This document shows, in pieces, positions 115-63,917 of a stretch of DNA of 64,000 bases. The notes under the pieces were generated by a model. The model did not search any database, was not told where the DNA came from, and saw only the letters and a list, made by a program, of their open reading frames with translations. How positions within the stretch are numbered: position 1 is the stretch's first letter; each line of letters starts with the position of its first letter. This DNA is from Azolla caroliniana (lineage: Eukaryota; Plantae; Polypodiophyta). The translations under genes and the position numbers were made by a program. Location: positions 1,612,001 through 1,676,000 of the forward strand of contig JBHGNT010000013.1 of assembly GCA_043228905.1 (NCBI GenBank), given 5' to 3'.

Positions 115-132
115 TTCACGTCGGGTTCACCA
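115..132 (-). promoter_or_regulatory. Primer-binding site, tRNA-Trp (element A1)
   Basis: TGGTGAACCCGACGTGAA, 4 nt from the LTR end; complementary to the 3' end of plant cytosolic tRNA-Trp (...TTCACGTCGGGTTCACCA, recalled from memory). Same PBS at 22838-22855, 38128-38145, 41582-41599, 43174-43191 and 54750-54767. Confidence 0.85.
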
Positions 133-136: not shown

Positions 137-840
137 TGTCGTGCCCTTCGGCTCCGGATCGTTGCGTGAGTCGGGTGGGAACCACCGAGGTTTTGGACTA
201 GGAGGAAGAGGAATACAACTTAAGGCTAGTTATGAATAATAGGAAGAGAAGTAAGATAGTAACCTCGTGAATCCCACGAGTTTAGTGTAATTAAAACAAT
301 ATTTAGATTATTAGAGCAATTAGATGGCAAAATTCGTGAATCCCACGAATCTATTAGATTGATCAATTCTTCTATATTAATCAACAACCTTATACATATT
401 TCTCTCCTCCTTATATAAAGATGGAAGAGGCTAAGCATGGCTTCATGCTTTTTCACCTAAAGTGTCCATGCACACTAAATGTGCATGTGATGCTTTGTCA
501 TTTCCTAAATATAGGGCTCATGCACGCTAGACGTGCATGAGTCACTTTTAATGGCACGTGTAAATAAAATATTCACACTCTAAAGAATACATGATTTTTA
601 CCTTTTAATAAAGGTATGTGTAAATAAAGGTCTTATACATATTAAATCTACATTTATAACACTAAAGATAAGTTATTACAATGGTAAAGTTGGGGTTTAT
701 CTATGTGGAGGTGCATGGTTTGAATCCTGCCCTATTGATGTGATAAATTCTTTTGATATATTATTTATTTATTTATATGTATCTAAAATTGGATATATTA
801 TTTTATGGTTTTCACGTAGTGTGTGGAATACACTACGACA
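137..840 (-). mobile_element. 5' LTR of Gypsy element A1 (family A), inserted into LTR B1
   Basis: TGTCGTG...TACGACA termini; PBS adjacent; highly similar to 58883-59585; LTR-B sequence resumes at 841 (ACGA). Confidence 0.9.
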
Positions 841-2931
841 ACGACAATATTACTTCCCAACCCCTTCCCGAGCAAGGGTTTGTTGCCCCTTTTGTGGGAC
901 TGGTGGCTTTCGTTGATCATGACTCGTCGAGTTTTCGAGATCACCGCACGAGCCGAGTGATCAAACGGGTACAAGCAAAGATGAGCATGCAAGATGAACA
1001 CACAAGGGGACGATAACACAAACACGAATGCTTGTACGTCTTTATGAGGAGGAGATGTGCATGGGCATGTCCGAACGCTCCCTCATCACAAGACGTCGAA
1101 CGTACAATGAAAGGGACGATAACAGAAACACAAATGCCCGTACGTCTTTATGAGGAGGAGAGGTGCATGGGCACGCCCGAATGCTCCCTTGTCACAAGAC
1201 GGCTGAACGTACAAGGAAGACACAAAACACACGCACAAATGCTCGTACGCCTTTATGAGGAGGAGAGGTGCATGGGCAATCCCGAATGCTCCCTCGTCAC
1301 AAGACGACCGAACGTACAAGGAAGACACAAACACACACACAAATGCTCGTACGTCTTTATGAGGAGGAGAGGTGCATGGGCATGCCCGAAACGCTCCCTC
1401 GTCACAAGACGCCCGAACGTACAAGGAAGACACAAACACATGCACAAATGCTCGTATGCCTTTATGAGGAGGAGAGGTGCATGGGCACGCCTGAAACACT
1501 CCCTCGTCACAAGACAACCGAACGCACAAGGGGACGATAACACAAACACAAATGCCCGTACGTCTTTATGAGGAGGAGAGGTGCATGGGCACGCCCGAAT
1601 GCTCCCTCGTCACAAGACGGCTGAACGTACAAGGAAGACACAAAACACACGCACAAATGCTCGTAAGCCTTTATGAGGAGGAGAGGTGCATGGGCAAGCC
1701 CGAATGCTCCCTCGTCACAAGACGACCGAACGTACAAGGAAGACACAAACACACACACAAATGCTCGTACGTCTTTATGAGGAGGAGAGGTGCATGGGCA
1801 CGCCCGAAACGCTCCCTCGTCACAAGACGCCCGAACGTATAAGGAAGACACACACACACACAAATGCTCGTACTCCTTTATGAGGAGGAGAGGTGCATGG
1901 GCACGCTCGAAACGCTCCCTCGTCACAAGATGTCGGAATATACAAGGAAGACACAAAACACACACACAAATGCTCGTACGCCTTTATGAGGAGGAGAGGT
2001 GTATGGGCACGCCGGAAACACTCCCTCATCACAAGACGTCTGAACGTACAAGGAAGACACAAATACACGTACAAAATGCTCATGCACTATGCCCAAAACG
2101 CTCCCTCGTCACAAGACGGCTGAACATTCAAGTGGACGAGAACAAAGAAAGAAAGAAAGAAAACACGAATGATATTGGCTAAAGAAATAAATATGTGTTT
2201 GATTCCAATGCAAGAGGGCCCTTTATAAAATAGGGTTTGATTATAATGTGGCAACTTCTAGTTAACCACAAGCTCAACAAAACATAAATACTGAATGCCC
2301 TTAGAGACAAAAGCAAATCCGAACATGGAGCACGAACACGAAGAAGATGAGCACATGAGCACCGTAAACGAGCACTTCGAGTGCCAACCGGAAGAAGACG
2401 AGCACGTGGCGATGAGGGGATGAAGGGGTATGAGATGAAGAGAAATGGTGAAGATGAAGATGAAGAGCTCCGAAAGAAAAATGGCGATAGTCTCCTCCTC
2501 CCAAAAAGTCCTCTCCAAATGAGCCCCCCCCTCGACCCCCTTTTATAGGAAAAAAAGGAAGGGGGGTCGCCACATTCGTCTTCAATGCAAAAGGAATAAA
2601 ATTCCTCAAATCACGCTACATTGTAAGACCATATTTGAACCATGCACCTCTAGCGAGGAATCAATATTTCTATCCACTAGCGCATTAACTCTCTATTATA
2701 TAATATATAGTTCTATATCTAGAAATTTATAGCCTGTCTCCTCTCTACTTTTTATCTCTCATCTCTCATACTTTTTACACGAGTTTCTATACCTCCTTTC
2801 CACACTTTCTTTTCCCTTTTCTTTTGCATGTGCACAATTAATTGCGTTTGCATGCACACACATTGTACATGCACATTTTGACCCCCCCTTTCGCTGGTTT
2901 TTCCCTCACTCGAGCACACCACATCACGACA
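841..2931 (-). mobile_element. LTR B1 (5' or solo LTR of family B, interrupted by A1)
   Basis: Colinear with LTR 8498-10716; ends CATCACGACA at 2931; no PPT next to it; flank CCAT. Confidence 0.88.
1022..2130. repeat. ~105-bp tandem array (10 units plus a partial) inside LTR B1
   Basis: TTTATGAGGAGGAGA recurs at about 1041, 1147, 1252, 1356, 1461, 1565, 1670, 1774, 1877 and 1983. Confidence 0.95.
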
Positions 2932-3739
2932 CCATTAGACCATCTGTGCCTCGACATGTTCTTGGGCCATCCGTTCCGCAATGGTCACCTGGAGGCGAGT
3001 GAGAAAGCCGATGAGCTCATATGCTGTGCCATGTTGTAAGATTGCACCGAGCTTGTAGGACTCGGGCATGTCCTTGAGGGTCAACACTTCTTCCACCAAG
3101 ATGCGAGACGCTTGTCCCTTCTCTGTATTCTCTGTCAAGGACATGGCTTTGTCTAGGATGACAATGTCAGTCTTATCGGGAGCGATGACCAATTGGAGCT
3201 TTTCGGCCGAGGAGTCCCTTTGCTCTTTGCTGTGTCATTGCAGCTTGCGACGTTTCTTGGTAGGGCTTGTCTGGGAGGACGTTTTCGTTGCATCCACTGG
3301 TTCTTCTCGGAGCCATTTCGGCCGCTCCACGGATGACTACGTGTTGTTGTTCATGCTTATCTGAGTTTCTTTCCGACGGTCCTATCATAGGCTGGCTGAT
3401 TTGAGCTTAGGCATTTCCATCGGAGTAGATGTCTTGGGATTTTCACGCCCCCTAATGGTGATGTTGTCTTCTGGTTCCTAGGTCTTGGCAATGGTGGTCG
3501 GTAGTGGCGAGGTTACTGTTTGGATAGGCGTATCATCTTGCCATTCCTCCTGAGCAACTGTAAAGCTCGTTGATGTTTCGCCCGGGTGGGCGGGGCAGGG
3601 AGGGTGAGGGTTCGGCGGGGTGTGGTAGTGGAATGGGGAGGGTAGAGCACAAATAAGTAGTGTGCTAGAGCAGGCAAGAACCATTTTCCTGCCTGGAAAG
3701 CCGACAAGCCAGCACGAATGCCTTCCCCTGTGATGATTC

Positions 3740-4019
3740 TGACGTGAAATACGTGGATTAATCTCCAGCCACAACCGAAGCGTAGATCACTTGATGACAA
3801 TAAAAAAAAACACAAACGAAATGGGAATGGAGGTAAGTCGACAAAATAGAAAGAGAATACACAGGATATTAACGTGGAAAACCCTGAGAGGGAAAAACCA
3901 CAGGAGTCCACAGACTCCAAACTATCACTCTATAAAGAATACAACATGGAGCACAGAGGCAACGACCTATTGCTCACAATCTTCGCCTAGCAGCAGTTAC
4001 AACAGAGACATGCTCTATA

Positions 4020-4055
<36 letters not shown>

Positions 4056-4443
4056 CAGTCGTTACACCAAAATTACTCTATCATCATCACTATTAAGTTT
4101 GCCCTAGGTCATATTTATACTAATATGACTTTCGGGCTATTTACAAATATAGCCCCAGTGGGCTCTCTAGAACATATTTACATATATGTCCCTTCCATCC
4201 GATGAGATGTTCTCACCGGGCCTGCAACATCCGGTTCTCACCGGGTCTTCCTTGCCGGGTACTCGTCATCCGGTTCTCACCGGGTCTTCCGTTGCCGGGT
4301 GGTACTCCACATCCGGTTCTCACCGGGTCTTCCGTTGTCGGGTACTCCACATCCGGATTCGGCTGAGGCCTATCGGCCTCGGCTGAGTTGCTCATCAACA
4401 CTGTTCTTCTCACTTCCCATCCGGAGGGACCTGTTTCCTAACA
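3740..4443 (-). mobile_element. Solo LTR, Copia (D-related)
   Basis: TG...CA ends; perfect 5-bp TSD GATTC (3735-3739 / 4444-4448); shares TTAACGTGGAAAACCCT..GGAAAAACCAC and CATATTTATAC..TATGACTTT blocks with D LTRs. Confidence 0.88.
4205..4360. repeat. ~40-bp tandem repeats (3-4 units) in the solo LTR
   Basis: CATCCGGTTCTCACCGGGTCTTCC recurs. Confidence 0.85.
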
Positions 4444-4678
4444 GATTCCCCAATCGATTACACCGCCTCTGTAGGTGGTGATGATGATTCCTACCGTCTT
4501 CTTCGGCATGCTATATGTGTTAGCATGCACACATACGAACTCCAAAAGAAATTTGGCTAGATCACCAAAGAACTCATTAGGACCTCCTTGTGTAAGATAG
4601 GCCTGTATTGACACCAATACTCTCTGAAATGAGCTTCGAGGATGTTCTGAGGTGGAGTCTCTATGTCATGTTCCCCGC

Positions 4679-7600
4679 TGTTGGGAATTCGGTCCCTCCA
4701 GATGGGTTTCTGATGAGACGGATCAGACACGCCGAAGGAAGGAACCAGACCAGACGGATCCGGTTCAAGGACATATCTGTAAATATATTTCTAGTGTGCT
4801 TGTCATGGCTATATTTGTAAATAGTCCTAAAGTCATATAGGTAAAAATATGACTTAGGGCAATCACTTTGTATTTGTAGGTTGTTATTATCATGTGTGTA
4901 GAGATATTGTTGTATAGATACAGAGAGTGCGTGAGAGAGAGAGGTAGAGATACAGAAAGTATTTTTTGTTGTAACCGCTGGTTGGCGAAGGCATAGAGCT
5001 CGAGGTTGTTGCCTCTGAATCTTGCATTGTAACCCCTTCTTCTCATAGCGATAGTTGGAGTTTGTGGTCTCATGTGGTTTTTCCCTATTAGGGTTTTCCA
5101 CTTAAACATCTTGTGTCGTCTCTTCTGTGTAAATGTATTAATCTCCATCTCTGTTTTGTTCTTCCATTGAGCTAGTAAGACTCGGTTGTGGCCAAGCTCC
5201 ATTCCCGCACAAACTGGTATCAAAGCCAAGGTTCGAAACCTTGAAGAAAATGGAAGAGTCATTCGGAAGCATGTTCAAACTCACCGGCTCCAACTACCTA
5301 GTGTGGAAGTCGAAGATGAGGGACATGCTCGTGGTCAAAGATCTTTGGCTGCTGGTACAATTCGGGGTCAAGAAACTGGACAAGATCGATGCCACGACAT
5401 GGGAGGTCATGCATATGAAGAAGGAGACATACATTAGATGCTTCATCGACATGAACCTATACAATAACTTTAATAAAGAAAGTAAGGCTCTGTGCCCTGG
5501 GAGAAAATCGGTACCATGTTGGAGAGTAAAAACGTTGTAAATCGGGTTTCGGTATTTTGGAAGTTAGTGAGACTCCGGTACCAGGACGGATCCAACATGA
5601 CAGAGCACATGAATGCATTCCAGGGGTTCATAAATCAAACAACCTCGCTGGAAGTACCTCTAGCCAACGAGGTACTCGCTTGCTACTGCTCGGTTCCCTC
5701 CCGGATAGTTGGGAGACACTAGTTGTCACTTTGGGCAACGCCGGGCCAGAAGGAAAATAGTTGTCCCTAGCAAGGGTAAATTCGCTAGAAGAACCGGGAG
5801 TCCGGAACCGATCCGAAGGCCTTGGTCACGGAAGATGACTATAACAGGGGAAGAGGCCGCAATCGGAGTCCCCAAAACCGAGACAAATCGGGGCTGAGGT
5901 CGAAGTCAAGAGGGAGGCCCACTTGCTTTTATTACGGAAAGTTGGGGCACTTCCAGAAGAATTGCCGACACTTCCGAAAAACCAAAGGGGGAGTTGGCAT
6001 TCCGGAACCGAAGAAGATTTCGGAAAAGAGAGGAACGTCGGCGATTGCGACAAGTGAAGAAGAACTGCTGCTAATCACCGAGGAGAGTGAGCTGCATCTT
6101 GTCAATGACGAAACGACATGGGTGGTTGACTCCGGCATATTGTTCCATCTGACCCCCGACCAAAAATGCTTCTTATCGTATAGAGCTGGAGATCATGGTT
6201 CAATTCAGATGGGAAATGAAGGTGCATGCCAAATTGTTGGCATAGGAGACATGTGGTTGATGACGTCAACTGGGTGCAGGTTGTTGTTGAGAGATGTCTG
6301 ACATGTTCCGGAGGTTCAGTTAAACCTAATATCAGCCGATAGGCTAGATGATGAAGGCTACACGGGTAGCATCCGGAATGGAGTCATGAAGTTTGGCAAA
6401 GGAAGCCTGATTGTGGCCCGTGTTACCCGTAAGAATATACGGGGAGGCATAAGGGTATGTGTAATGATGTGGTTGATGTGTATGTGTAAAGTAAATGAGT
6501 GTGTGAGGATGAGTATGTGTATGGACACATGCACAATTATGTGCATGTGTACAAGAATGTGTAACGGTCTTATTTATAACGGTCATGTAACCGTTACATT
6601 AGATGTAAACCCTCTATGGGGTATGAAATGAAATATACATTTTTCCCCTCTCATTTTGTGTCACTTTCAATTTTTCTTTCTCTCTAGCTCTCTCACTATC
6701 GTAACCCCCTTGGGAGGGGGGTGAAGCCATTCTAGGTTTCACGCCCCACCCCAACAACAACCCGAGCCCGGAAGATCAACACACAGTACCTGATGCATGC
6801 CCGGATTTGCTGGGAGGAAGTGAACGTGGCATCTGAAAATGCTGGTGAGCTGTGGCACAAAAGGTGTGCCACATGAGCCAGAAAGGGATGAGATGAATTG
6901 CCGAAGATTTCCTCATTCCGAAGGTGAAAGATGTGCATCTTGAGAGGTGCACCGATTGCTTGGCTGGCAAGTAGAACCGAACCTCATTCCGGTCGAGACC
7001 ACCGTCGAGACGGAATGCACCGCTGGAACTTGTGCATGCCGACGTATGCCAAGTGGACACGAAGTCACATGCCGGATCACAGTATTTCGTGACGTTCATA
7101 GAAGACCACAACTGGAAGCTCTAAGTCTCACCACTGAAGACGAAGGATCAGGTATTGTCCGTCTTCAAGGACTTCCACGTGAGAGTGGAAAGGGAAACCG
7201 ATAGGAAGTTAAAGGCGGTTCGAGCGGACAACGAAGGAGAATACCAGGGGCAGTTCGAGGAGTACTGTCAGTCTAAGGGAATCCGGTTTGAATTCACCGT
7301 GCCGAAGTCACCGGAGCTAAACGGATTGGCCGAAAGGATGAACGGGACCATAATGGAGAGAATCCGGAGCATGTTGGCACATGCTAAACTGTCCAAGACG
7401 ATTTGGGCTGAGGCGCTAATGACGACGATGTACGTGATTAACGGATCACCCTCAGTACCCTTGGACGGAGACACACCACATAGTATGGACCGGTAAAGAT
7501 GTGTCTTACCGGCATTTGAAGGTGTTCGGCTGCCTTGCCTACGTGCATGTTGCAAAGGAAAAGTGAGCAAAGTTCGATCCGAAGTCCCAACCATGCATAT

Positions 7601-8497
7601 TCCTTGGATATAGCAATGATGAGTTCGGGTACCGAGTGTGGGACATGGTCGACAAGAAGGTGTTCCGGAGTCGAGACATAGTTTTCATGGAAGACAAGAC
7701 TATTGCCGACAGGGAGTCGAAGAAGAAGATAGTGGACTCCAGATCGATCGACAGAGATCGGTTGGAACATGCTAGGAAACATCCGGTTGGAAGCCAGATG
7801 TCAACCAAAGACCATAATGAACCGGACGGATTCAGACAAAGAATGGGACTGACCGAAGAAGAATCAGACACCGGAACCGGTCAAGACCCTAAATTGGATT
7901 TGGATGAAGAACAGATGGAGGAATTGGTGATTGAGAACCAAGGACGAAGATATCCTCTTAGGGAGAGAAGAGCCCCCCAAAGATTTCTGGATACAGAGCA
8001 TGTGCTGCTGATCGACGAGGGGGAGCCAGAAAGCTTTGAAGAAGCAAAGGAAGACACCCGCAACCGCAAGGAACCACAGGACGAGATGGATTCCCTGCAT
8101 GAGAACCACACATATGGATTGATGGAGCTACCGAAAGGAAAGAGAGCACTCAAGAACAAGTGGGTGTACAAGATAAAACCGGGAGACACCGAAAATCCAC
8201 CGAGGTACAAAGCCCAGAACAAGTGGGTTTCAACAGAAGGAAGGAATGGATATCGATGAGATCTTTGCCTCGGTAATCAAGATGACATCCATTCGAACTG
8301 TGTTGAGCATTGCAACAAGCATGGACCTCGAGGTAGAGCACCTAGACATCAAGATGGCATTCCTACATGGCGACCTCGAAGACGAGATCTACAAGCAACA
8401 ACTAAAGGGATTTGTCAAGAAAGGGAAGGAGCACCTGGTATGCCGGTTGAAGAAGAGCTTATACGGACTGAAGCAAGCTTCCCGACAATGGTACTGG
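4679..8497 (+). mobile_element. Decayed Ty1/Copia element D3 (5' LTR 4679-5211, gag-PR-INT-RT pseudo-ORF), cut by Gypsy B2
   Basis: TGTTGGG...GCACA LTR; PBS TGGTATCAAAGC (tRNA-Met-i) at 5215; fragments of the zinc knuckle, WVVDSG, NGLAERMN and LKKSLYGLKQ with many stops and frameshifts; paralogous to D1. Confidence 0.9.
6421..6759. mobile_element. Short solo LTR (339 bp) inserted in D3
   Basis: TGTTAC...CAACA ends; 5-bp TSD GCCCG/ACCCG; removal restores IVARARKIN. Confidence 0.8.
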
Positions 8498-10716
8498 TGT
8501 CGCAAGTTTCGCACGTGTGTGTTACTTGGCGGGACCATGGGGGTCATGGACTAGGGAGCACGAAGGGATAGAGAAGACCCGAGGCTTGCTTTATGACAAT
8601 ACTACTTCCCGATCCCTTCTTGAGCAAGGGCTCGTTGCCCCTTTTGTGGGACCGGTGGCTTTCGTTGATCACGCTCTTCGAGTTTTCGAGATCACCGCAC
8701 GAGCCAAGTGATCAAATGGGTACAAGCAAAGATGAGCATGTCGGATGAACGCACAAGGGGACGATAACACAAACACAAATGCCCGTACGTCTTTATGAGG
8801 AGGAGAGGTGCATGGGCACGCCCAAATGCTCCCTTGTCACAAGACGGCTGAACGTACAAGGAAGACACAAAACACACGCACAAATGCTCGTAAGCCTTTA
8901 TGAGGAGGAGAGGTGCATGGGCAAGCCCGGATGCTCCCTCGTCACAAGACGACCGAACGTACAAGGAAGACACAAACACACACACAAATGCTCGTACGTC
9001 TTTATGAGGAGGAGAGGTGCATGGGCACGCTCGAAACACTCCCTCGTCACAAGACGCCCGAACGTATAAGGAAGACACACACACACACAAATGCTCGTAC
9101 TCCTTTATGAGGAGGAGAGGTGCATGGGCACGCCCGAAACGCTCCCTCGTCACAAGACAGCCGAATGTACAAAGAAGACAAAAAACACACACACAAATGC
9201 TCGTACGCCTTTATGAGGAGGAGAGGTGCATGGGCACGCCCGAAACGCTCCCTTGTCACAAGACGACAGAATGTACAAGGAAGACACAAACACACACACA
9301 AAATGCTAGCACACCTTTATGAGGAGGAGAGGTGCATGGGCACGCCCAAAACGCTCCCTCGTCACAAGACGACCGAATGTACAAGGAAGACACAAACACA
9401 CGCGGAAATGCTCGTACGCCTTTATGAGGAGGAGAGGTGCATGTGCACACTCGAAATGCTCCCTCGTCATAAGACGACCGAACGTACGAGGAAGACACAA
9501 AAACACGCACAAAATGCACGTACGCCTTTATGAGGAGAAGAGGTACATGGGCACGCCCGAAACGCTCCCTTGTCACAAGACGGCCGAACGTACGAGGAAG
9601 ACACAAACACACACACAAAATATTCGTACGCCTTTATGAGGAGGAGAGGTGCATGGGCACGCTGGAAACGCTCCCTCGTCACAAGACGACCGAACGTACA
9701 AGGAAGACACAAACACATGCACAAATGCTCGTACGTCCTTATAAGGAGGAGAGTTGCATGGGCATGCCTGAAACACTCCCTCGTCACAAGACGGCCGAAC
9801 GTACAAGGAGACGAGAACAAAGAAAGAAAGGAAGAAAAAATACAAATGATACTGGCTAAAGAAATAAAGATGTGTTCGATTCCAACGCAAGAGGGCCCTT
9901 TATAAAATAGTGTTTGATTACAATGTGGCAACTTTTAGTTAACCACAAGCTCAACAAAAGATAAATACTAAATGCCCTTAGAGACAAAAGCAAATCCGAA
10001 CACGGACCACAAACACGACAAAGACGAACACATGAGCACCACATAAATGCCGACCCCTACGAACCACAACCACCCGAACGAGCACACGTGCTCGCAACGA
10101 CGAACGGGGGTGAACCAATGTCGAACTCATGAAGCTCGGGCTCACGAGCACTGTAAACGAGCACTTCGAATGTCAACGCGAAGAAGACGAGCACGTGGCG
10201 ATGAGGGGATGAAGGGGTATAAGATGAAGAGAAAATAGTGAAGAAGATGATGAAGAGCTCCGAAGGAAAAATGGGGATAGTCTCCTCCTCCCAAAACGTC
10301 CCCGAAGATGAGTCCCCCTCGACCTCCTTTTATAGGAAAAAAAGGAAGGGGGTTACTTATTTTGTCTTCAATGAAAAAGGAATAAAATTCCTTAAATCAT
10401 GCTATTGTAAGACTAGATTTGAACCAAGCACCACTAGCTAGAAGTCAATGCAACTATCCACTAGTCCATTAACTATATCTTATATAATACATAATTCTAT
10501 ATCTACAAATTCATAGCCTGTTTCCCCTCTACTTTTTATCTCTCCTCTCTCTTACTTTTTACACGAGCTTCTATACCCCCTTTCCACCCTTTCTTTTCCC
10601 TTTTCTTTTGCATGTGCACAATTAATTGCGTTTGTGTGCACACACATTGCACATGCACATTTTGACCCCCCCCTTTCGTCAATTTTTCCCACTCTCGAGC
10701 ACGCCACATCACGACA
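8498..10716 (-). mobile_element. 3' LTR (2.2 kb) of Gypsy element B2
   Basis: TGTCGC...CACGACA ends; PPT GGTGGGGGTGGA abuts at 10717-10728 on the minus strand; left flank CTGG where intact Copia has CCGG. Confidence 0.92.
8770..9812. repeat. ~105-bp tandem array (10 units) inside LTR B2
   Basis: Same unit as 1022-2130. Confidence 0.95.
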
Positions 10717-11956
10717 TCCACCCCCACCAAATTCGTCAAGGTCATCGAGGTTTGGCTCCATGTCGTGTCGCTTTTTGAAGTTTTTGACCCGTTTGCTTGC
10801 TATTGGTACTGCCAGCTTAGTCCCATCGAGTTCAGCGAGGTGGTAGGTGGCATTATCGTTTGCACTCGTTACTACGTACGGCCTAAACCATCTCTTTGCG
10901 AATTTCCTCATCGAGCTATGTTGATTGTCGAGATTGCTATCATACATAATCACCCAATCTCCTTCTTCGATCTTCCGAGGGCGTAGTCGGTGTGTATTGT
11001 CGAACCGGGCTTTGTTACTGAGCCTAACTGCTTCTAACCTCTCCTTTGCCAACTCCAAGTCTTCGGGTCTTCTCTCAAGTTGCCTTATCCTTGTTGCTAG
11101 AAGCTCTTCTCGACTCATCTCGTTTTCCCATGGCATCGCTACCCATGACGCGATCGTGTCTTGAATGGGCATCACCGGCTTTTGTCCGTACATGAGTTCA
11201 GCTAGCATGAAACTTGTAACTGAGCTATGAGTTGTTCTGTCGGCCCACAAGGCATAAGGTAGTAATCGAGGCCAGTTCCCGACTCGCCCATCACAAGCTC
11301 TTACAATGACTTTTACGATAGGCCCGTATCTGTGTTCTATCTTTCCATTAATCTATGGGGTATAGGTGGTCATGAGAGAGAGCTTCACTCCAAGTCGTTC
11401 AAAGAGCTCTGTAGCTTCGTGAGTCTTCAACTCTCCTCTGTCGGCCACTATCTTTCCCACACATCTGTACCGGCAGATGACATCCTCGAGTAAGAATTTA
11501 CACACCCCCGCCGTCGTTTTGTTTGCTAAGGCTCACCCTTCTACTTGGTTGGTTAGTTCTTCTCTTGCTAGCACCAAATATTTCATTTGGCCCACTCCCA
11601 CTCCCATCGGCATCGAAACCAAATTCACCATCCATTTGAAGTGTATGGTGAGTGGGTAGGTCAGGTGCAACTCATCCCTATGGCGTATGTTTGAGTGTAC
11701 ATTCCCCACGAAATGGGTGACATTCTTGTACATTCCCGGCCACCAATACTTCTCCTTTAACTTCTCGAATGTTGCCCACATTCCTCTATGGTCCGCCCAA
11801 GGACTCTCGTGGAACTTAGACACCGATGTTGTCTGGTCCTCTTCCTTTATGACCACTCGTTGTGGCGTTCCCGTCCTTCTCTTTGGGTGCCTCTAGAGGA
11901 ATCCCCCTCATAGGAAGTACTTGTACGCTTTCTTTCGGACTCTTTGTGCTTCCTCC

Positions 11957-29982: not shown

Positions 29983-30100
29983 AAAACCATGGGCTAAACC
30001 CACGGCTAAAACCATGGACTGAAACCATGGGCTAAAACCACGGACTGAAACCATGGGCTGAAACCATGGGCTGAAACCATGGGCTAAACTATGGTTTTGT
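29983..30100. repeat. 11-12-bp AAACCATGGGCT microarray in U3 of H/J LTRs
   Basis: About 10 units in the H 3' LTR and 4 in the H 5' LTR (43478-43530); palindromic AAACCATGGTTT variants in J LTRs. Confidence 0.85.
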
Positions 30101-41800: not shown

Positions 41801-42254
41801 TATATTGATGATATGGTGTTGGTGATATCACATATTGAGCCACCCTTACACAAGTTCAAGTAGAGGCTTTTATAGGTCTTTCCATACTTGTGACATGCAC
41901 AAAACCATGGGCTAAAACCATGGTTTTGTGCACACAATTTTGCTTATGTCACGCACAAACCATGGGTTTAGAACCATGGTGTTGTGCACATGGTTTTCTA
42001 ATGGTTGTTTCATCTATAATTCATAGGAAAAGTAAATACATAAAATCTACACTATATGATAGTAGTCCTAGTGGTAAGGCAATTATCTTGTATCTTAGAG
42101 GTGCAAGGTTCAAACCTTGCTTGCACCCCTCTGTATGAACTCAAGTGCCACTAGGCCTTAGAAGGCTTATTTGCTAAGTGCATGTGCAATGTTGCACATC
42201 CTTGGTTTATTCGTCTCACTCGGTTTCACACCGTAGCCGAAAATCGTCACGACA
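38833..42254 (-). mobile_element. Non-autonomous gag-only Gypsy element J1
   Basis: LTRs 38833-39484 and 41605-42254; TSD GCGT/TCGT; PBS 41582-41599; PPT 39485. Confidence 0.92.
39286..39358 (+). promoter_or_regulatory. tRNA-like A-box/B-box module in LTR U3 (representative copy)
   Basis: TGTCCTAGTGG-34 nt-TTCAAACC with a GCAAGG/CCTTGC stem; counterparts in 11 LTRs. Confidence 0.6.
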
Positions 42255-54099: not shown

Positions 54100-57000
54100 T
54101 GTCGTGACGATTTTCGGCTATGGTGTGAAACGGAGTGAGATGAATAAACCAAGGAAGTGCAACATTGCACATGCACTTAGCAAATAAACCTAAGGCCTAG
54201 TGGCACTTGAGTTCATATAGAGGGGCGCAAGTAAGGTTTGAACCTTGCACCTCTAAGATACAAGATAATTGCCTTACCACTAGGACAACTATCATATAGT
54301 GTGAATTTTATGTATTTACTTTTCATATATGAATTATAGATGAAACAACCATTAGAAAACCATGTGCACAAAACCATGGTTCTAAACCCATGGTTTGTGC
54401 ATGACATAAGCAAAACCGTGTGCACAAAACCATGGCTTTAGCCCATGGTTTTGTGCATGTCACAAGCATGGAAAGACCTATAAAAGCCTCTAGTTGGGCT
54501 TGTGTAAGGGGGGCTCAATATGTGATATCACCAACACCATTATCATCAATATAATTATATTTGTCTTTATCTTCTTCATATTTTTCTACTTCTCAAGTGT
54601 ACAATCTTTCTTCTTCTCAAGTAAACCAATTTCATCTAATCTTACATTGATCGTCATCTCTTCGATAATTCTGCAAACATCCTCCCCAGTCCAAGACCCT
54701 GGTGGTCGCTCGAGTAGCACACGCACGCGCGAATCTTCGCGACATCATTTGGTGAACCCGGCGTGAAGAGCAGCAGGGGAGGACGAAGATGGATGGCGAA
54801 TATCTCATGAAGGCAATGTCAAAAAGGATGATGGAGTTTCTGAGAGAAGGGAAAAGAAGAAATGAAGCCCAACAAGCCGTCGAGAGGGTAGTTGAGCGAG
54901 TGAGCTATTTTAACGGTGCCGAAGTCCAAAGTTTCCTAAAAGTCTACAATGCGGAGATGGATTCAAGAGGTGTGGACAAAGCTATGAGGCTAGAGTACTT
55001 TTGTCGGGTGGTGTCTCAACTGATCTTCAAAGATGTAAAAGAGCTTCTAGAAGCTCATGATTCATGGGAGACTTTTGAGAAGGCTCTATTGGAGGAATAT
55101 GGCTATGAGAGATTGAAGGGACGAGATCGACGCAACTTCGACCAATGGGTGACATCAGCGAAGACCCACCAAGGTGCGACACAAGCATTCGTAGACTTCG
55201 AGCATCGTTTTTCTCAACTCTCGGAGCGAGAACAAAGATTAGTGGGGGTCGATAAGGTCCTTATGCTCATGAAGTCAATCGATCGAATGGAAAGGATGTC
55301 CATTGGCCTCAAACTCGAAGAAGATGACGGTGCAAATGGCCTCATCGAGGATTGGAGCAAAGTGGAAAGTATATGCCGACTACACGATAAGGGGCAAGCG
55401 AGAATATCGACGAGAACAAGATGGCCCATGAGGGACGATCGAAGAGGGACGAGATGCAACAACGCGCCACCAACAAAAGAAATGAAGCTTAAAAGGGAGA
55501 CAAAACCGAGGCGAATGGTGATCGAAGAAGAAGAGACCTCCCAACAAATGCGGGTTAATGAAGTGGCCAATGCAATGGCTTAGGTTCGGTATGACGGTAC
55601 CGAGAGAGAAGGTGCGAAACAAGTCACCTTCTTGTCTTACGAAGAAACGACGGCCAAGGAGGAGGCCGATGACTCGAGGACGGCGAACGCCACTTCGAGG
55701 GAGGATAAATGTTTAGGAACACGCATTGTGTACGAAACATCGGGTGATGAAGGTGCAAGCATGAGAAGATCTTGCATGATCGAGGGAGATAAAGTGTTTG
55801 AGTTCGACATGATTGAGGAGGTAGCCATGACAAACGACATCGAGTCGGAGGTGGCTATGAACGAGTCGACGACGGATAGCCATGTCGACACTTTCTCCAC
55901 GGTTGTTCCAGAGACGTTGGCGGTTGCACCCGTGTGCCAACGTGAGACCGGAGAGACGGAAGGTGGTGACGGGAAGACAAAGGCCCAACACAAGGAGGAA
56001 GAAGATCGAGGAAGAAAGGATATCCCCACACCTGTTCTAGAGACTTCGACGGTTGTGCACGTGCGCCAATGTGAGACCGGAGAGACAGAATGTGTGGACG
56101 AAAAAGCGGACGACGGAAGGGCGATGAAGAAGACAAGGTAAATGTGCATGAGCGAAGGGATTCCTTCACACCGGTTTCGGAGACTTCAACAGTCGAGACC
56201 GTGTGTCGACATAAGACCGAAGATAAAGGAGGTGGCGAAGAGGAGACAATATGGCTCGAGGCGAGCATACACGGAGGGAAGGATATGGCTGACGAGTAGG
56301 CCAAGGATGAAGCCGCGGTTGAGTTCGATGGAGAGGCTGCATGCGGGAAGGAAGGAAGAGTCGAGAACCGGTCGAACCGGAAGACGATCCGGCCGGGATT
56401 CCGGCCCGAACGAAGGAAGATCCACATGGGAGCCAATCGACCGGGGCCGACCCGGCCGAAACCTGATTCGGCGAAAATCGATCGGACGATTCCGATCCAA
56501 AAGGGGGCCGACCTAGCCAGAATCAATTGGTCGAGCCCGACTCGGGGAAATGCGAATGCAGACGAAGGCCAATCGAGCCAAGAAGCGATCGGCGGAGACC
56601 GATCCGGACAAGGGCAAACCCAGCGTAATCGAAGATGGACACGAACGATCCACAACATCCAGTTGAAGACGGTGAGCATGAGGAGTGGCTAGGAATCCAA
56701 TCGAAGGACACGCGCGGTGGATGAAGGAAGAGCGGTTGGATCCAGGACATCGTTCAGTAGATCTACTACAACCGATCGGGGAAGAAGGTGTGAGCGCCAT
56801 ATATGGTGGATCGGGTGGCTACGGTGGTTCAGTTGGAAAGATTACGCATACTCGAAGTGGAAGACGAAGTCAGACGAGGTCGACGACTGTGCATAGGAAC
56901 TTCGTTGATCACCATTGCCAAAGATCTCACCTCTTCACCTTTCTCGGCACATACCGGAGGATGTGCGGGTTTGGTGGGGGTGGATGTCGTGACGATTTTC

Positions 57001-57604
57001 GGCTACGGTGTGAAACCGAGTGAGACGAATAAACCAAGGATGTGCAACATTGCACATGCACTTAGCAAATAAACCTAAGGCCTAGTGGCACTTGAGTTCA
57101 TATAGAGGGGCGCAAGTAAGGTTTGAACCTTGCACCTCTAAGATACAAGATAATTGCCTTACCACTAGGACAACTATCATATAGTGTGGATTTTATGTAT
57201 TTACTTTTCATATATGAATTATAGATGAAACAACCATTAGAAAACCATGGTTCTAAACCCATGGTTTGTGCATGACATAAGCAAAACCGTGTGCACAAAA
57301 CCATGGCTTTAGCCCATGGTTTTGTGCATGTCACAAGCCTGGAAAGACCTATAAAAGCCTCTAGTTGGGCTTGTGTAAGGGGGGCTCAATATGTGATATC
57401 ACCAACACCATTATCATCAATATAACTATATTTGTTTTTATCTTCTTCATATTTTTCTACTTCTTCTTTCTTCTTCTCAAATAAACCAATTTCATCTAAT
57501 CTTACATTGATCGTCATCTCTTCGATAATTCTGCAAACATCCTCCCCAGTCCAAGACCCCGATGGTCGCTCGAGTAGCACACGCACACGCGAATCTTCAC
57601 GACA
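54100..57604 (+). mobile_element. Non-autonomous gag-only Gypsy element J2
   Basis: LTRs 54100-54744 and 56985-57604; perfect TSD ACGT; PBS 54750-54767; PPT GGTGGGGGTGGA. Confidence 0.94.
54789..55583 (+). CDS. gag: Gag-like (capsid) ORF of J2, probably once continuing into a repetitive acidic tail
   Basis: FNGAEVQSFLKVYNAEM..WETFEKALLEEY..VLMLMKSID..DWSKV aligns with gag of I (FSGKDATSYLASYRAEM..WEEFEGRLLEKY..VLLFVKSVD..DWAAV). Confidence 0.8.
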   Translation: MDGEYLMKAMSKRMMEFLREGKRRNEAQQAVERVVERVSYFNGAEVQSFLKVYNAEMDSRGVDKAMRLEYFCRVVSQLIFKDVKELLEAHDSWETFEKALLEEYGYERLKGRDRRNFDQWVTSAKTHQGATQAFVDFEHRFSQLSEREQRLVGVDKVLMLMKSIDRMERMSIGLKLEEDDGANGLIEDWSKVESICRLHDKGQARISTRTRWPMRDDRRGTRCNNAPPTKEMKLKRETKPRRMVIEEEETSQQMRVNEVANAMA

Positions 57605-59542
57605 ACGTCGTCTCTGTTCCTGCTCCAGTATGGCCATACTACGTACCTGAGCCTCTCCTAATTCGAGGAGTTGTTGTAACCGTAGCTGCTTGGACTGGCC
57701 TTCCGCTAGGTGGTCTTGTACTTGAATTCACAGACTTGGCACCTGGAATTCAACAGGCATTACGGATTCTAACCCAAATGCAAGTCGGAATGGCACAGAC
57801 TATATGATAGTCTTATAACTGGTCTGATATGCGCACAAACCGTTGTGCAATTTAGTGTCCCAGTCCGTTCTATTTTCATTCACGATCTTCTTCAATATTT
57901 TCTACAAGATTTTGTTTGTGGACTTTGCTAGTCCATTCGCTTGTGGATAGTATGACGTGCTTTTCTTATAGACGATGGCGTAATGGTGCGTGAGCTCGTG
58001 GATGACTGAATTCAGAAAGTGAATCCCTTGATCACTAATGAGCTCGATGGGGCAACCAAAACAGCACCAGATGTAATCGTACAAAAACTTTGCCGTAGAT
58101 GCCGCTGTGTTGTCCTGTAGTACCTTTGCTTCCACCCACTTAGTGCAATAGTCCGTGGCTACCAAAATATACCGATTACTTGTTCGCGCTGCTGCCGGTG
58201 TAAAGAGTCCCACAAAATCAAGACCCCACTTCTGGAATGGATCTAGTGGAAGAATGGGTTGATGTGGCATTCTCGCGCTCTCCGTGGGCTGACCCAATCG
58301 TTGACATAAATCACATTTCTTGCAATAGAGGTGCGTTGTCCTTTTGCGTGGTCGGCCACCATAGACCTGCTTGCCATATTTTTCTGGCCGTAACATCTCC
58401 CGCATAGTACCCCCCTGTCATACCGTAGTGAGCTTCGCGCAAAACAACTTCCTTCTCATCCTGACATACCCCGCGTCGCCAGAGTCCATCGTTGCCCTTG
58501 TGATACAGTATTCCTTCGACTAGGCAAAAGTTACGGCTACGGACAACCAATCGCTTCTTTTTGTCCGTCCTTAATTGTGTCGGTGGCATTCCTGTAGTGA
58601 AAAATTATGTCATTTCCATTAGCCATCGATCCGGAAAATTTTTCTCTTCCCGTGACGCTACCATCGCGACCCCCAAAACATCCGCATTGAGAAAGTCATT
58701 GTCATCTGTCCTTGCAGTTTCCCCGTTATCCACCCTGCTCAAGAAATCTGTCACGACGTGTTGCGTACCTGGGCGATGCTGAATTATGAAGTCGAATTCT
58801 TGGAGCAATAACATCCATCTAGCTAGTTTTCCTGTCAGTGCTTGTTTCTCCACAAGGTAGAGCAACGCCGCATGATCTACGTTGTCGTGCCCTTCGGCTC
58901 CGGATCGTTGCGTGAGTCGGGTGGGAACCGCCGAGGTTTTGGACTAGGAGGAAAAGGAATAAAACTTAAGGCTAGTTATGAATAGTAGAAAGAGAAGTAA
59001 GATAGCAATCTCGTGAATCCCACGAGATTAGTGTATTTAAAACAATATTTAGATTACAAGAGTAATTTAGATGGCAAAATTCGTGAATCCCATGAATATA
59101 TTAGATTGATCAATCCTTATATTTTAATCAGCAACCTTATACATATTTCTCTCCTCCTTATATAAAGATGGAAGAGGCTAAGCATGGCTTCATGCTTTTC
59201 CACCAAATGTGTCCATGCACACTAAATGTGCATGTGATGCTTTGTCATTTCCTAATTATAGGGCTCATGCACGCTAGATGTGCACGAGTCACTTTTAATG
59301 TCACGTGTAAATAAAATATTCACACCCTAAAGAATACATGATTTTTACCTTTTAATAAAGGTATGTGTAAATAAAGGTCTTATACGTATTAAATTTATTG
59401 TATAACACTAAAGATAAGTTATTACAATGGTAAAGTTGAGGTTTATCTACGTGAAGGTGCAGGGTTCGAATCTTGCCCTATACATGTAATAAATATTTTG
59501 AGATATTATTTATTTATTTATATGTATCTAAAATCGGATATA

Positions 59543-62500
59543 TTATTTTATGGTTTTCACGTAGTGTGTGGAATACACTACGACACTCGCCCCTTCCGAA
59601 CCCGCACATCCTCCGGTATGTGCCGAAGTTCTCGATTCCTCATATCCGTCTTCACCCAAAGATTCCTCCGATTCTCCTCTTATGTCGACTATGAGTTGTA
59701 ATTCACTTTCTTCGCTTCCCGAATCACCGTGGTCTTCGTCCGATTGCTCCTCGTTGTCGGCCTTGGCTTGGATCACATAGGGTTTGTCGTCGGTCCGCTT
59801 CTTGAAAATCTTCACCCGCTTCCCGGCTATAGGCACTCGTAGTATTGTTCCATCCAACTCGGACAGTCGGTACGTTCCGTTGTCGAAGACTTTACGAACC
59901 TCGTATGGCCCGAACCACCTTTTTGCGAATTTCCGCATCGTTGTATGTTGATGGTCCAAACTACTGTCATAGACGATCACCCAATCTCCTCCTTCAATCC
60001 TCCTCGGTCGTAGTTGGTGCTTTGCGTCGAACCGGCTTTTGTTCCGGAATCGTGCTTCTTGTTGTCGGCGTATTGCTTCCGCTATGTCTGCCGGTCTTCC
60101 CTCTAGTTGTCGTATCCGGACCGCTAGTAGTTCTTCTCGGCTCATCTCTTCCTTCCACGGTAGCACTGTCCATGTTGCGATCACGGTTTCCGTCGGCATT
60201 ACTGGTGCTTGTCTGGTCATGAGTTCTGCCGGCATGTAACCGGTTACGGAGCTATGCGTCGTCCAATCCGCCCATAGTGCATACGGAAGCATCTGCGGCC
60301 AGTCCTTCACCTTTCCATCGCATGCCTTCGCAAGTGCTTTCACGATCGGACTATGTCCTCGTTCGATTTTCCCGTTGGCCTCCGGATTGTATGTTGTTGT
60401 CAGCGTTAACCGAACTCCGTGTTTGGCGAAGAATCCCCTAGCTTTATCCGAGTCGAGTTCTCCCTGGTCCGCAATCACTTGTCCTACGCACCCGTACCTG
60501 CAAAATACTTCCTCCAAAAGAAATTGGCATACCGCGGAACACGTTTTCCTCTGAAGCGCTCGACCTTCTACTTGATTCGTGAGATCTTCCCGAGCTAATA
60601 CCAAGTATTTCTTTTGTCCGATCCCGGTCGGCATGGCCACTATGTCGACCATCCACTTGAAGTTGATTGTCGGTGAGAATGTCGGATGTAACTTATCTCG
60701 ATGTCGAACCCCGGAGTAGACTTGACATTTCTCGCAGCTTTCCGTGAACTCCGCGACATCTTTGTACATTTTCTTCCACCAATATTTTTGCGTGATCTTC
60801 ACAAATGTTGCCCATGTTCCTCGGTGTCCAGCCCAATCGGATTCGTGAAACTCTGACATTATCCGGTTTCGTTGCTCTTTTGTCCCGACTACTCGAAGTG
60901 GTATACCATCCGGTCTTTTCGGCGCCCTCCATATTAATCCGTTTTCCAAGAAGAACTTTTGGACTTGCCTCTTCTTCCTTCGCATCTCGGCTCTTCTTTC
61001 TTTATCGTTTGTTGAATCCTCGGCCTCTTGTAACATCTTTCCGATCATCAAGCTTTCTCCCTCGTATTCTTCTTCCTGGAATTCTCGGATTACTTTTACT
61101 CGGCATATGTGCTCCGACGCGAAGTAGTCTTCGGAAACTTCTTCATTATCCGATTCGGTTATGTTGTCTCCGAACCGAGCCCTTGATAACATATCCGCTA
61201 CCGCGTTGTCCTTCCCCGAGATTTGTCGAACCTCCGGATTAAGCGACTTGACATATGCAACCCACCTTAGCATAGCTACATCCGGTATCGTACAACACCG
61301 TATCATCCCGAGTATCGGAAGACAATCCGTCTCGATCACTACTTCGGCTCCGATCAAATAATCCCGATCCGATTTTATCGCCGACACGACTCCCCACAGT
61401 TCTCTTTTGACTTGTGCATATCCACGTTGCCTTTCGTTGAGAACCTTTGCTCCGAATCGGATCGGATACCGCGAACCATCCGAGTCGGCTTGATTGATGA
61501 CCCACCCGATACCGGTTGGACTTGTATCAACCGTTACTATGATCGGTCGGTCATAGCTCGGCTTCTTAAGTGCTTCCGCCCTCCGAAGTGTCTTCTTCAA
61601 TTTCTTCATGGCTTTGGTGTGTTCCGGTTTCCATTCAAATTTCTTACCTTTCCGCAACAAGTGGTAGAGCGGGTCCGCTATATGTGCATAGTGCGGAATC
61701 CATATGTGATTGAATGCACATGCACCGAGAAACCTTCGGACTTCGGATGTTGACTCACATACTTCCTCCATAGCTTGAATCGCATCGATCTTTGTTGGTG
61801 ACGGTCTTCGGCCGTAGGGCCGACATAGATGTCCGACCACCAATATTTCTTCTTGCCCGAATGCCGATTTCTCCCCGGAAAGTGTTAGGTGCACATCTTC
61901 TAGCTTTCGCAACACTTTCTCGCAATCATGAATATGGTTGACCACGAACTTTCCGCATCCCCGATCATCCATAGTCTCATCTTTTTCTTCTACCGCGCAT
62001 CCTTTCATTGGAATGTCATCGAGGAACGGCATCGTTATCTCCGGAATGCAATCTCGAAGCACCTTGTTCATCGCGTTCATCATATGAGCAACCGAGTTTG
62101 TCGCTCCTTGTGGTAGTGTGCACATTCGGACTAATCCTATCGGTGTTCGCATTGTTGTGATGTCTCGGCTCTCCACGGCTAGTTGGAATTGGTCATATCC
62201 GGAGTATAGGTCTCCGATGGAGTATATCGCACGACCGGCAAAAGCTTCCGCAAATTCGTCCACTGTCGGACCGACTCCCGAGTTTCGGATCGTGACCTTA
62301 TTCACCGGTTGCAAGTCTTGGATAAATCGGAGTGACCCATTCTTCTTCGGAACCGTTGTCGTGCCTTTCGGCTCCGGATCGTTTGCGTGAGTCGGGTGGG
62401 AACCACTGGGGTTTTGGACTAGGAAGAGGAGAGTTTTAAGGCTAATAAGAATATAAATATGTTGTAAGAAAGAGTTATAGTAAACTCGTGAATCCCACGA

Positions 62501-63917
62501 GTGTATTGTATTAGATTAATCAATATGAATATAAGAATATAAACTTCGGTTGAAAGAGAATGATATAGAATTCTCGTGAATCCCACGAGTATAGTTTATT
62601 AATTGGTGTATTTTAGAAACATATCCAGTTTCCAAATATTTTTCACACACAATTACATTGTGCTCCCCATCCTTATGTAGTGATGAGGAAGTCTTAGTAA
62701 TCTATGCTTTTTCTCTAACTATAGACCCCATGCTTTTCCTATAGATAGACTATATGCTTTATCTAAAGTGATCATGCTTTTTTCTAACTTGTGCGTTTTT
62801 TATCATGCACGCTAGATGTGTATGTGTAGCTTTTTCTTTTGTTATGCGTTTTTCTAATGTTTATCCTAGCGTGAATTTACCTTTCTATGTGGGACATCTA
62901 TGCTTTAACACTAATGAAATGCTAGTGTAATGGTAAGACATTACATTATTAACATGGAGGTGCAAGGTTCAAATCTTGCCCTATGCATGTTCCATTTATT
63001 TTGCTATTTTCTTCTATTTCTTCATTTTTTATTGAATCTAATACTATATACGTTTTTCACGTAGTGTACAAAATACACTACGACACCGTGAACCAACGAT
63101 TTGAGTACGGAGCAGTTGATGGCTCTAGAATCCCCATCGCCACCTTCTCCTTGAGCAAGTCAATGACTTTCGGAATATGTGCTCGTGAAACTGGATTCGG
63201 CTTCAGGTTCCACGGTACATGGTCAATCGTGAAGATCACCATCGGCTCCACTATTCTCGGATCGATGCACCCTATCTCCCTTGATGTAAATGCAAACGCT
63301 TTGCCGTGTTGCTCCAACATCTCGCGAAACCGTTCTTCTTCTTTTTGTAATAGGAACCCACCTCCACCGATCCGAAGTTTCTTCCGGGTCTCATCCGTGA
63401 AGGCATGTCCGATATCCACGGACTTCCGAAGTGTCGGATCTCCCGAGACTTCTTTCCTCTTTTGTTCGCTATCGGCGGGTAGTGGTCCCGCGGCCGGTTT
63501 CACCTTCTTCTCCACGGTCTTGTATTTTGTACTTACCATTGCTTCTTCTTTGCGGAGCGTATCCGGCTCCATTTTTGCAATGATATCGTACATCTCGACC
63601 GATTCCACCAGGACTACCCGGTTCCCTTGGCTTTTATCTTCCGCAAGCTCTTCAAGTCGTTGTAGCGTGCTCCCATAGAACACTTCTTCGACTATCCCCA
63701 TGATTTCTTCATCTTCTTTTATTATTGATGCCGACCGCAACTTCTCCTCCACTTGTCGGTATCCTTTCTTCAATCCTCCGGTTACGGTCGTGTACGTAGA
63801 TGCCCCATCCGGACCGATTCGTACATGTTTTGCTCCGAGAGTTTTCTTCTTGTGTGGGGTATTAGGGCTTCTCGGACTATCACTTCCCCACTCCGCAACA
63901 GTCCGCTTTAAAAATCC
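59543..63917 (-). pseudogene. pol: pol of A2 (RT-RH-INT), open except for the solo-LTR insertion
   Basis: ORFs 63078-63773 and 59543-62314 join as YSNRWFTV|PKKNGSLRF; LPQGATNS, FLDDIP, VDTSP, WMVD and WFGPY. Confidence 0.92.
62357..63085 (-). mobile_element. Solo LTR of an A-related subfamily
   Basis: TGTCGTGCC...CTACGACA ends; perfect 4-bp TSD CCGT; ends like family A, middle diverged. Confidence 0.92.

Follow-up and report, generated by a model that had tools for sequence, protein, structure and literature searches.

Eleven long terminal repeats (LTRs) of Gypsy-type retrotransposons carry a short tRNA-derived module in a 64,000-nucleotide stretch of the Azolla caroliniana genome (GCA_043228905.1, contig JBHGNT010000013.1, positions 1,612,001 to 1,676,000). 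The whole stretch is called the window here, and positions are counted from its first letter. Each of the eleven LTRs has an A box, the letters GGT at tRNA positions 45-47, and a B box. Many families of this plant Gypsy lineage, protein-coding ones included, carry one to three modules per LTR. The pattern of conservation indicates that the module is very probably a functional site for TFIIIC and RNA polymerase III (Pol III). By analogy with yeast tRNA genes (tDNAs), its role may be a barrier or open-chromatin effect at the Pol II promoter of the LTR, a reading given a probability of about 0.5. The modules lie in LTRs of families A, B, H and J and in a solo LTR:

667 to 737, plus strand: module in A1, antisense to the element; G19 at 684, T54 at 719; this copy has C56T.
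2622 to 2690, minus strand: module in B1, sense to the element; T54 at 2639.
10405 to 10475, minus strand: module in B2, sense; G19 at 10458, T54 at 10423, 87 nt upstream of the TATA-like box.
30172 to 30247, plus strand: module in H1, antisense; T54 at 30228, spacing 36.
39286 to 39358, plus strand: module in J1, antisense; G19 at 39304, T54 at 39339.
42056 to 42128, plus strand: module in J2; T54 at 42109.
43602 to 43678, plus strand: module in H2, antisense; T54 at 43658.
54223 to 54297, minus strand: module in J3, antisense to a plus-strand element; T54 at 54242.
57109 to 57180, minus strand: module in J4, antisense; T54 at 57127.
59413 to 59482, plus strand: module in A2, antisense; T54 at 59465, 298 nt upstream of the TATA-like box.
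62914 to 62987, plus strand: module in the solo LTR, antisense; T54 at 62968.

A preliminary description had reported the motif at these eleven places and on these strands, and it is present at all of them. The gap of 34 or 35 nt given there corresponds to a distance of 35 nt from G19 to T54 (36 in H). The reported orientations also hold when judged by primer-binding site (PBS), polypurine tract (PPT) and pol strand, with the module antisense in A, the solo LTR, H and J, and sense in B. A textbook rule for an A plus a B box, which was not trained on the sites and is expected to give 0.035-0.195 matches per shuffled LTR, finds the module in 11/11 module LTRs and in 0/9 of the E, I, G and Copia LTRs, in line with the absence from E, G and I noted earlier. 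The G LTR was rescanned in full and contains no module. Over the whole window the same rule gives 19 matches, as against 4.65 in shuffles. A sequence-only model, whose training set included five of the eleven window sites, places all eleven at E <1e-5 and no other site below E 1.

The families were at first called unalignable, which is correct in part. Between A with the solo LTR, H with J, and B, alignment is confined to the module and to short pieces of ends or palindromes. Within these sets, H and J are 76% identical over the whole LTR, which leaves about three independent groups. The A and solo LTRs can be aligned at both ends and are 72% identical over the first 183 nt, including the module.

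Related elements were obtained from a scan of metagenome contigs, in which 80 of 163 loci encoding a pol relative were retained (cited by L numbers). Most of them come from one block of host-rich assemblies, so the breadth of hosts is uncertain. An iterated hidden Markov model gives 38 matches at E <0.05 in these loci and the window, and none in reversed decoys. A box-only weight matrix finds 35 sites in 25 of 46 LTR stretches (49.9 kb) and no site in either local shuffles or 112 kb of internal sequence. Of the 35, six are neither training sequences nor near-copies of them.

There are 37 full-length matches, 25 of which are non-redundant (<78% identical to each other). G18, G19, G45, G46, T47, G53, T55, A58 and C61 are invariant across the 25. 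In pairwise comparison, the A box has a mean identity of 0.63, positions 43-48 of 0.77 and the B box of 0.80, where random sequence gives 0.31. The mean is 0.39 in the anticodon arm, 0.32/0.29 in the acceptor strands and 0.34/0.31 in the flanks, and sequence past position 65 is at the background level of 0.29-0.31. Positions 54-58 read TTCAA in 15/25 modules, TTCGA in 7/25, TTTGA in 1/25 and otherwise in 2/25, which means that the CpG is altered at position 57 (G/A) while C56 is kept.

The same contrast is found among close relatives. In 13 orthologous LTR pairs, hand-picked from LTR alignments and not mutually independent, core box bases are identical at 113/117 positions, all 16 box positions at 184/208, and positions 44-47 at 49/52. 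The spacer is identical at 195/286 (68%) and the flanks at 1554/2051 (76%), which agrees with the earlier expectation that the boxes would be more conserved than the surrounding U3. Spacing is off by 1 nt in two of the 13 pairs, and the flanks have 72 gaps in 2243 nt. The expected fixed spacing is also seen in a search that did not require an A box, where an A box stands 35 or 36 nt from 24 of the 29 B sites. When partners were chosen by their flanks only, 22 of 27 rows keep the module where both flanks align. The other five comprise two alternative pairings within module-bearing LTRs, two short AT-rich flank matches, and L055, which keeps both boxes and has an 11-nt spacer deletion. Off-spacing arrangements occur in L055 (1061-1115, both boxes at 24 nt) and in the L050 LTR (560-800, two B boxes and an A-like box at 40 nt).

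Depth from contigs of four DNA runs, which bear four organism labels, peaks over the B-box bins of J1 (39323-39355). Among the variant rows for J1, none of the 40 listed (a further 24 fell outside the listing) lies in G18-G19 or in 39329-39346, and loose contig ends reveal additional subfamilies whose A box is the same and whose spacers differ. The runs on the B module (three of four covered, 10 variant rows) add little, with C56 variants at 3-8% and G19 variants up to 5%.

ARAGORN and Rfam do not call any of the eleven sites a tRNA gene. The best Rfam tRNA score is 13.8 bits (J1), as against a cut-off of 29, and A2 gives no match. A tRNA gene search of 50 related loci returns no gene. Cloverleaf pairing amounts to 47.2%, compared with 48.8% in shuffled sequence. 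No stem in the canonical register pairs above shuffles, and the RNAalifold consensus predicts no pair. The modules thus lack the cloverleaf and the covariance score of a tRNA gene. A shifted T hairpin with a 6-nt loop exceeds shuffles (p ~0.01) and is read as driven by the related A/H/J group and not as a structure. An ARAGORN call of tRNA-SeC at 30004-30094 overlies the CCATGG repeat array of H1 and is regarded as false.

What the modules do have is the A and B box of a type-2 Pol III promoter, at tRNA spacing and with the TFIIIC contact bases intact. In the human TFIIIC structure, base contacts map here to positions 53, 55, 56, 57 and 61, and the complex surrounds the stretch upstream of the B box (10.1101/2023.05.16.540835). 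The invariant B-box bases of the modules match those contacted. An upstream AT-rich region, a CAA motif and a downstream oligo-T are also described for type-2 promoters (PMC13578239). Sequence upstream of the modules is ~75% AT, in a U3 that is AT-rich overall. A run of four T (T4) follows 15/25 modules within positions 66-104, where 6.3 are expected from the neighbourhood. The bases kept suggest that selection acts at the DNA level, on a type-2 Pol III promoter and not on a tRNA.

Strong modules are mostly placed some 85-380 nt upstream of a TATA-like box. They are antisense in 21 of the 25 non-redundant cases, and sense modules occur in B, L018, L020, L021, L022 and L005. A sense copy stands 120-290 nt downstream of the TATA-like box in L005, L026 (5' LTR), L032, L033 and L054, and an antisense copy in L031. 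The initial restriction to U3 is therefore too narrow, since six related LTRs have a module downstream of that box. Modules are found on both sides of it in five LTRs (L026 5' LTR, L031, L032, L033 and L054), facing outwards in four. The proposed occurrence in either orientation is borne out at the sequence level, with both strands used and the same bases conserved. B-box halves are duplicated in L031 and L033.

In the J LTRs there is also a weak second A box on the opposite strand, at 42103-42146 (minus), 54237 (plus) and 57122 (plus). In J2 it is convergent and uses the same palindromic T arm (T54 at 42114, minus; E 1.6). It is perhaps the remnant of a head-to-head pair, and L030 has a convergent module pair that is clearer than in J. 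Between module and TATA-like box, H and J have a variable palindromic CCATGG/TGCACA array (29975-30075, 39120-39230, 54340-54460), and A, L026, L032 and L054 have ATGCAT-rich palindromes at the matching place. These palindromic arrays are possibly Pol II enhancers.

U3 blocks that contain the module or border on it are common to elements with distant pol. They are 71% identical over 255 nt in L026 and L054, and 73% over 274 nt in L030 and L070. Conversely, L052 and L056 have close pol and unrelated LTR bodies. Such mosaic LTRs suggest that module-bearing U3 blocks pass between co-resident families by recombination. Unrelated LTR bodies on close pol or gag relatives are also seen in L026 versus L014 and in H versus L014, where H gag is 80-87% identical to that of module-less L014. 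LTR replacement thus appears to be frequent in this lineage.

The module occurs in most deep clades of a quick pol tree, in a patchy way. That tree has 55 rows (51 loci and four window elements), is rooted arbitrarily and includes a long branch that is an artefact (L078); of the 80 loci, 25 had <600 aligned residues, and four had no usable LTR notes. The module was not found in the group of I, G, L019 and L027, nor in the LTR sequence of the few loci from other sources, among which only L044 and L061 have much LTR. Prokaryote genome contigs give no match to the module pattern. Module-bearing elements measure 2.8-8 kb. The gag and pol frames of module-bearing loci are long and open, in contigs that may be collapsed from many copies. 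In L001, L020, L026 and L054 the gag frames are roughly 700 and the pol frames 1160-1240 amino acids long.

According to the proposed mechanism, conserved A and B boxes of tRNA origin, with the tRNA fold lost, would bind TFIIIC and the Pol III initiation machinery within the LTR. The bound machinery would hold chromatin open at the element's own Pol II promoter and so counter silencing, and U3 blocks with the module would move between co-resident families through recombination. TFIIIC binding is suggested by the invariant B-box bases, which are the TFIIIC contact bases. Since the A box is kept too, loading of TFIIIB and Pol III is probable. The fission-yeast centromeric tDNA barrier is described as requiring the A box and Pol III and as independent of orientation (PMC2040200), and the anti-silencing effect is proposed by analogy with such barriers. 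Selection on the boxes as DNA, indifferent to strand, fits badly with a tRNA product, with a promoter of the Helenus type, or with primer pairing of the Ty3 type. A broader and tentative suggestion is that autonomous Phygy-type elements of a plant without seeds may have domesticated tRNA promoters as portable barriers flanking the Pol II core promoter, duplicated or inverted them, and passed them between distant families by U3 exchange. This would be a counter-defence through an essential host complex that is hard for the plant to silence.

The main rival to the barrier reading is that the modules are working Pol III units that restrain the element, either by a complex that represses the Pol II promoter or by short (~85-110 nt), mostly antisense RNAs with a regulatory role. 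It agrees with the excess of antisense modules, with the T-skewed downstream strand and its T4 runs, and with the repression of Pol II reporters by adjacent tDNAs in budding yeast (PMC2040200). It is nevertheless rather unlikely: there is neither a conserved RNA structure nor conserved sequence beyond the boxes, J has no T4 within 300 nt, and the spread to distant families together with the duplication would better fit a benefit to the element. The use of the module to make the element's genomic RNA by Pol III, as in Cassandra and as proposed for Helenus, is extremely improbable even though sense modules exist in B and the five loci named above. Most modules are antisense, all four non-redundant sense modules have a T4 within ~40 nt, and the elements are 2.8-8 kb long with TATA-like boxes in their LTRs. 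Pairing of an antisense module in the 3' U3 of the genomic RNA with the primer tRNA, as in the bipartite PBS of Ty3, would account for the frequent antisense orientation and for the D-loop and T-loop residues kept; Ty3 U3 segments pair with the T and D arms of their primer (PMC5371799). It is very improbable here, as the PBS implies A62 in the primer and hence T52 by stem pairing, while the modules have C/T at 62 in 25/25 cases and G52 in 20/25. C61 is also invariant even though the PBS duplex includes position 61, and sense modules, which are unable to pair with the tRNA, show the same pattern.

The modules could also be functionless hitchhikers, heads of tRNA-derived short interspersed elements (SINEs) or tRNA pseudogenes that fell into LTRs. 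That they are patchy on the pol tree, face both ways and vary in position would agree with this, and SINE insertion has been proposed as the origin of Helenus (PMC10886601, Kojima). A dispersed SINE was among the refuting alternatives named in the preliminary description, and the module does not resemble one, given the lack of a shared body or tail and of sites in 112 kb of internal sequence. Boxes that diverge far less than the spacer between them in orthologous LTRs, and modules kept in 22/27 partner rows with both flanks aligned, make passive presence improbable. A SINE origin itself is possible; neutrality is what fails. The modules might instead be mobile landing pads for integrases that target Pol III sites, as in Ty3. 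In run X9, one contig departs from the B LTR at 10484-10485, ~10 nt upstream of the module, a single event, and runs on into sequence that looks by eye like the beginning of the Copia LTR of the window. This idea is quite improbable: the five insertions nested in module-bearing elements of the window are 1348-3008 nt away from the module of their host, at no fixed distance, none of the eleven LTRs has an element inserted beside the module, and targeting would be a side effect that leaves the carrier's retention of the boxes unexplained.

Several points weigh against the barrier reading itself. A loose box rule over-matches internal sequence (18 matches, 7.4 expected). The modules share descent and the model was seeded on window sites, so that p-values overstate independence. 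Full sites are missing from 21 of 46 LTR stretches, many of them incomplete, and families with long open frames and no module include I, G, L013, L014, L019, L037, L056 and others. The module is therefore not essential, as related long-frame families manage without it. The plant CAA motif occurs in only 3/25 modules, and the T4 count is what local T-richness gives (14.4 when the same 39 nt are shuffled). The TATA-like boxes and the limits of U3 are assigned by motif matches only. TFIIIC tolerates variable distances between A and B boxes (10.1101/2023.05.16.540835), and the rigid spacing of 35 or 36 nt is thus not explained by TFIIIC alone; this spacing and the invariant GGT at 45-47 stay outside the present explanation. 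Lastly, tDNAs can also repress adjacent Pol II genes (PMC2040200), so that the sign of the effect is not fixed.

The window is a nest of LTR retrotransposons, with the following elements and parts:

116 to 132, minus strand: tRNA-Trp-type PBS of A1, from a motif scan.
137 to 840, minus strand: LTR A1, the 5' LTR of an element that exits the window leftwards; it sits within B1 and is placed by its PBS and ends.
841 to 2931, minus strand: LTR B1, a 5' or solo LTR split by A1, with a 105-bp tandem array.
8498 to 10716, minus strand: LTR B2, the 3' LTR of a pol-bearing element.
10735 to 11952, 17294 to 18811 and 23619 to 24177: pol pieces of the B2 element, with gag at 25454 to 25943.
18815 to 23623, minus strand: element E, of the same lineage, without reverse transcriptase (RT); module-free LTRs, negative control.
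25964 to 26701, minus strand: 3' LTR of element G, module-free, negative control.
29703 to 30377, minus strand: LTR H1, the 3' LTR of element H, which has no RT and is inserted into pol of G.
31850 to 38798, minus strand: element I, gag-pol, of the same lineage; module-free LTRs, negative control.
38833 to 39484, minus strand: LTR J1, the 3' LTR of RT-less element J (38833 to 42254).
41605 to 42254, minus strand: LTR J2, the 5' LTR, with a PBS at 41583 to 41599.
43197 to 43807, minus strand: LTR H2, the 5' LTR, with a PBS at 43175 to 43191.
54100 to 54744, plus strand: LTR J3, a 5' LTR with target duplication ACGT/ACGT shared with J4.
56985 to 57604, plus strand: LTR J4, the 3' LTR.
58883 to 59585, minus strand: LTR A2, the 3' LTR of pol-bearing element A.
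59543 to 62356, minus strand: Gypsy pol of element A, with RT, RNase H and integrase, interrupted by the solo LTR.
62357 to 63085, minus strand: solo LTR of an A-related family (79% to L003), with target duplication CCGT/CCGT.

Some details of the earlier description change with this list. A1 and A2 do not make a pair; they are the 5' LTR of one element and the 3' LTR of another. B1 and B2 do not form a pair either, as a PPT is present at B2 and none at B1. RT is not present in any of H, J and E: H has gag and an integrase tail, and J (2.8-3.5 kb) and E have only gag-like frames, while A and B carry pol. The B LTR reaches 2.2 kb because of the 105-bp tandem array (995-2081, 8742-9809), which lies downstream of the TATA-like box.

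All Gypsy elements of the window have ends of the TGTCG...CGACA type. Target duplications are exact in J3/J4 (ACGT/ACGT), I (CCGT/CCGT) and the solo LTR (CCGT/CCGT), and have one mismatch in H (CTGG/CCGG), J1/J2 (GCGT/TCGT) and E (CCAT/CCGT). The 17-nt PBS motif of A1 recurs at 22839, 38129, 41583 and 43175 (minus) and at 54750 (plus), and in many related loci. We take it to be of the tRNA-Trp type, in agreement with the Phygy table row. A scan with the PBS complement returned 31 loci, with no matching tRNA gene among them as the primer source. Pfam recognises only RT, RNase H, H2C2 and the integrase core in pol, with a weak SH3 match; a chromodomain or an extra RNase H was not found, and the Gypsy domain order is kept. 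The best named relatives of the element A pol are proteins of the liverwort Riccia (<=61% identity over 91% of the query), and weaker ones occur in the fern Adiantum. A scan of viral contigs found no pol relatives. Phygy is a lineage of non-chromovirus Ty3/gypsy elements, described in the available text as known from Physcomitrella only, with a 4-bp NCGN target duplication in 100% and a tRNA-Trp PBS in 81% of elements (PMC6317226, Neumann 2019). A 4-bp duplication of this kind is found in all six window elements that have both ends. By these features alone, and not by a tree, the window Gypsy elements match Phygy.

Gag (281-2416) and pol (2296-6018) overlap in L001, and the same layout in L020, L026, L054 and others implies a translational frameshift. 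The gag end of these loci has DUF4100 and a weak protease match. L019 contains an RT-less element (7395-10688) with an open frame of 1098 amino acids, which has no Pfam match and resembles the frames of J and E. L019, J and E appear to form a gag-like non-autonomous group with a long tail of no assigned domain. The LTRs of E, I, L019 and L027 have a GC- and CpG-rich 5' end (0.47-0.51 GC) and a short U3. Module-bearing LTRs are AT-rich (0.27-0.44 GC), a contrast that is not clean, as other module-less LTRs are AT-rich too. Two Copia copies at 11957-17283 (plus) and 45872-51192 (minus) belong to one family and are 96-97% alike. Both have an open frame of 1374 amino acids and 5-bp target duplications, with LTR pairs that are 100% and 99.7% identical. 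This Copia family was likely active recently.

The subject bears on how the LTR promoter of a plant retrotransposon stays usable within a methylated nest. Natural matched controls exist in pol sequences that are nearly identical and come either with the module or without it (L052 versus L056, L026 versus L014), and families with one to three copies in both orientations provide further contrasts. If the barrier reading is true, plant transgenes would gain a candidate insulator in the ~60-bp module. Should the promoter reading alone be true, Pol III promoter capture would extend from mini-elements to autonomous elements, and many candidate TFIIIC sites would be added to such a genome.

Small-RNA promoters in LTRs are already known from Cassandra, Helenus and Ajax, all of which are short and non-coding. 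Helenus elements are miniature terminal-repeat retrotransposons (TRIMs; TRIMp3) whose LTRs hold a tRNA-derived sequence with conserved A and B boxes and no working tRNA (PMC10886601, Kojima 2024). They are 311-1263 bp long and non-coding, one plant family occurs in Selaginella, and their tRNA-like part, sense in the LTR consensuses available, is proposed to drive their own RNA. The available text adds that the autonomous partners have to rely on Pol II, that they are unlikely to have long LTR stretches in common with TRIMp3, and that 'not a few' Repbase LTRs hold tRNA-like parts, the analysis being limited to TRIMs (PMC10886601). The initial remark that no such description was known for plant LTRs is qualified by Helenus in Selaginella. 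For autonomous plant elements, literature searches, with most subscription journals outside their coverage, found no publication that deals with modules of this kind. It is possible that LTRs like these are already annotated in Repbase.

Like Helenus, the present elements have tRNA-derived A and B boxes inside the LTR. Unlike Helenus, they are coding Gypsy elements with one to three modules per LTR, mostly antisense, and do not show the TRIM features of a size of ~1 kb or less, a non-coding interior and a promoter oriented to transcribe the element. Cassandra and Ajax also keep a captured small-RNA-gene promoter in the LTR, and in these TRIMs it is a type-1 promoter derived from 5S (PMC10886601). 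They differ from the present elements in being non-autonomous and in using this promoter for their own transcript. The module resembles the fission-yeast cen1 tDNA-Ala barrier, in which A and B boxes act as DNA and independently of orientation (PMC2040200); in the LTRs this likeness is one of sequence only. Barriers of tDNA or TFIIIC are host loci, either intact tRNA genes or B boxes alone, and the present modules are borne by retrotransposons. To our knowledge, such barriers have been examined mainly in yeasts and animals. Phygy elements share with those of the window the NCGN duplication, the tRNA-Trp PBS, the lack of an extra domain and a polyprotein that fills most of the interior (PMC6317226). 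The available part of that description shows no LTR promoter module, unlike the present LTRs. Ty3 is similar in having tRNA-complementary sequence in the U3 of a Gypsy-type element (PMC5371799). Its segments match the primer tRNA, whereas the present modules agree with the Pol III box consensus and not with the primer. The Drosophila gypsy insulator is a boundary element carried by a retrotransposon, with Su(Hw) sites in the 5' untranslated region. Unlike the present modules, it does not consist of tRNA-derived LTR boxes.

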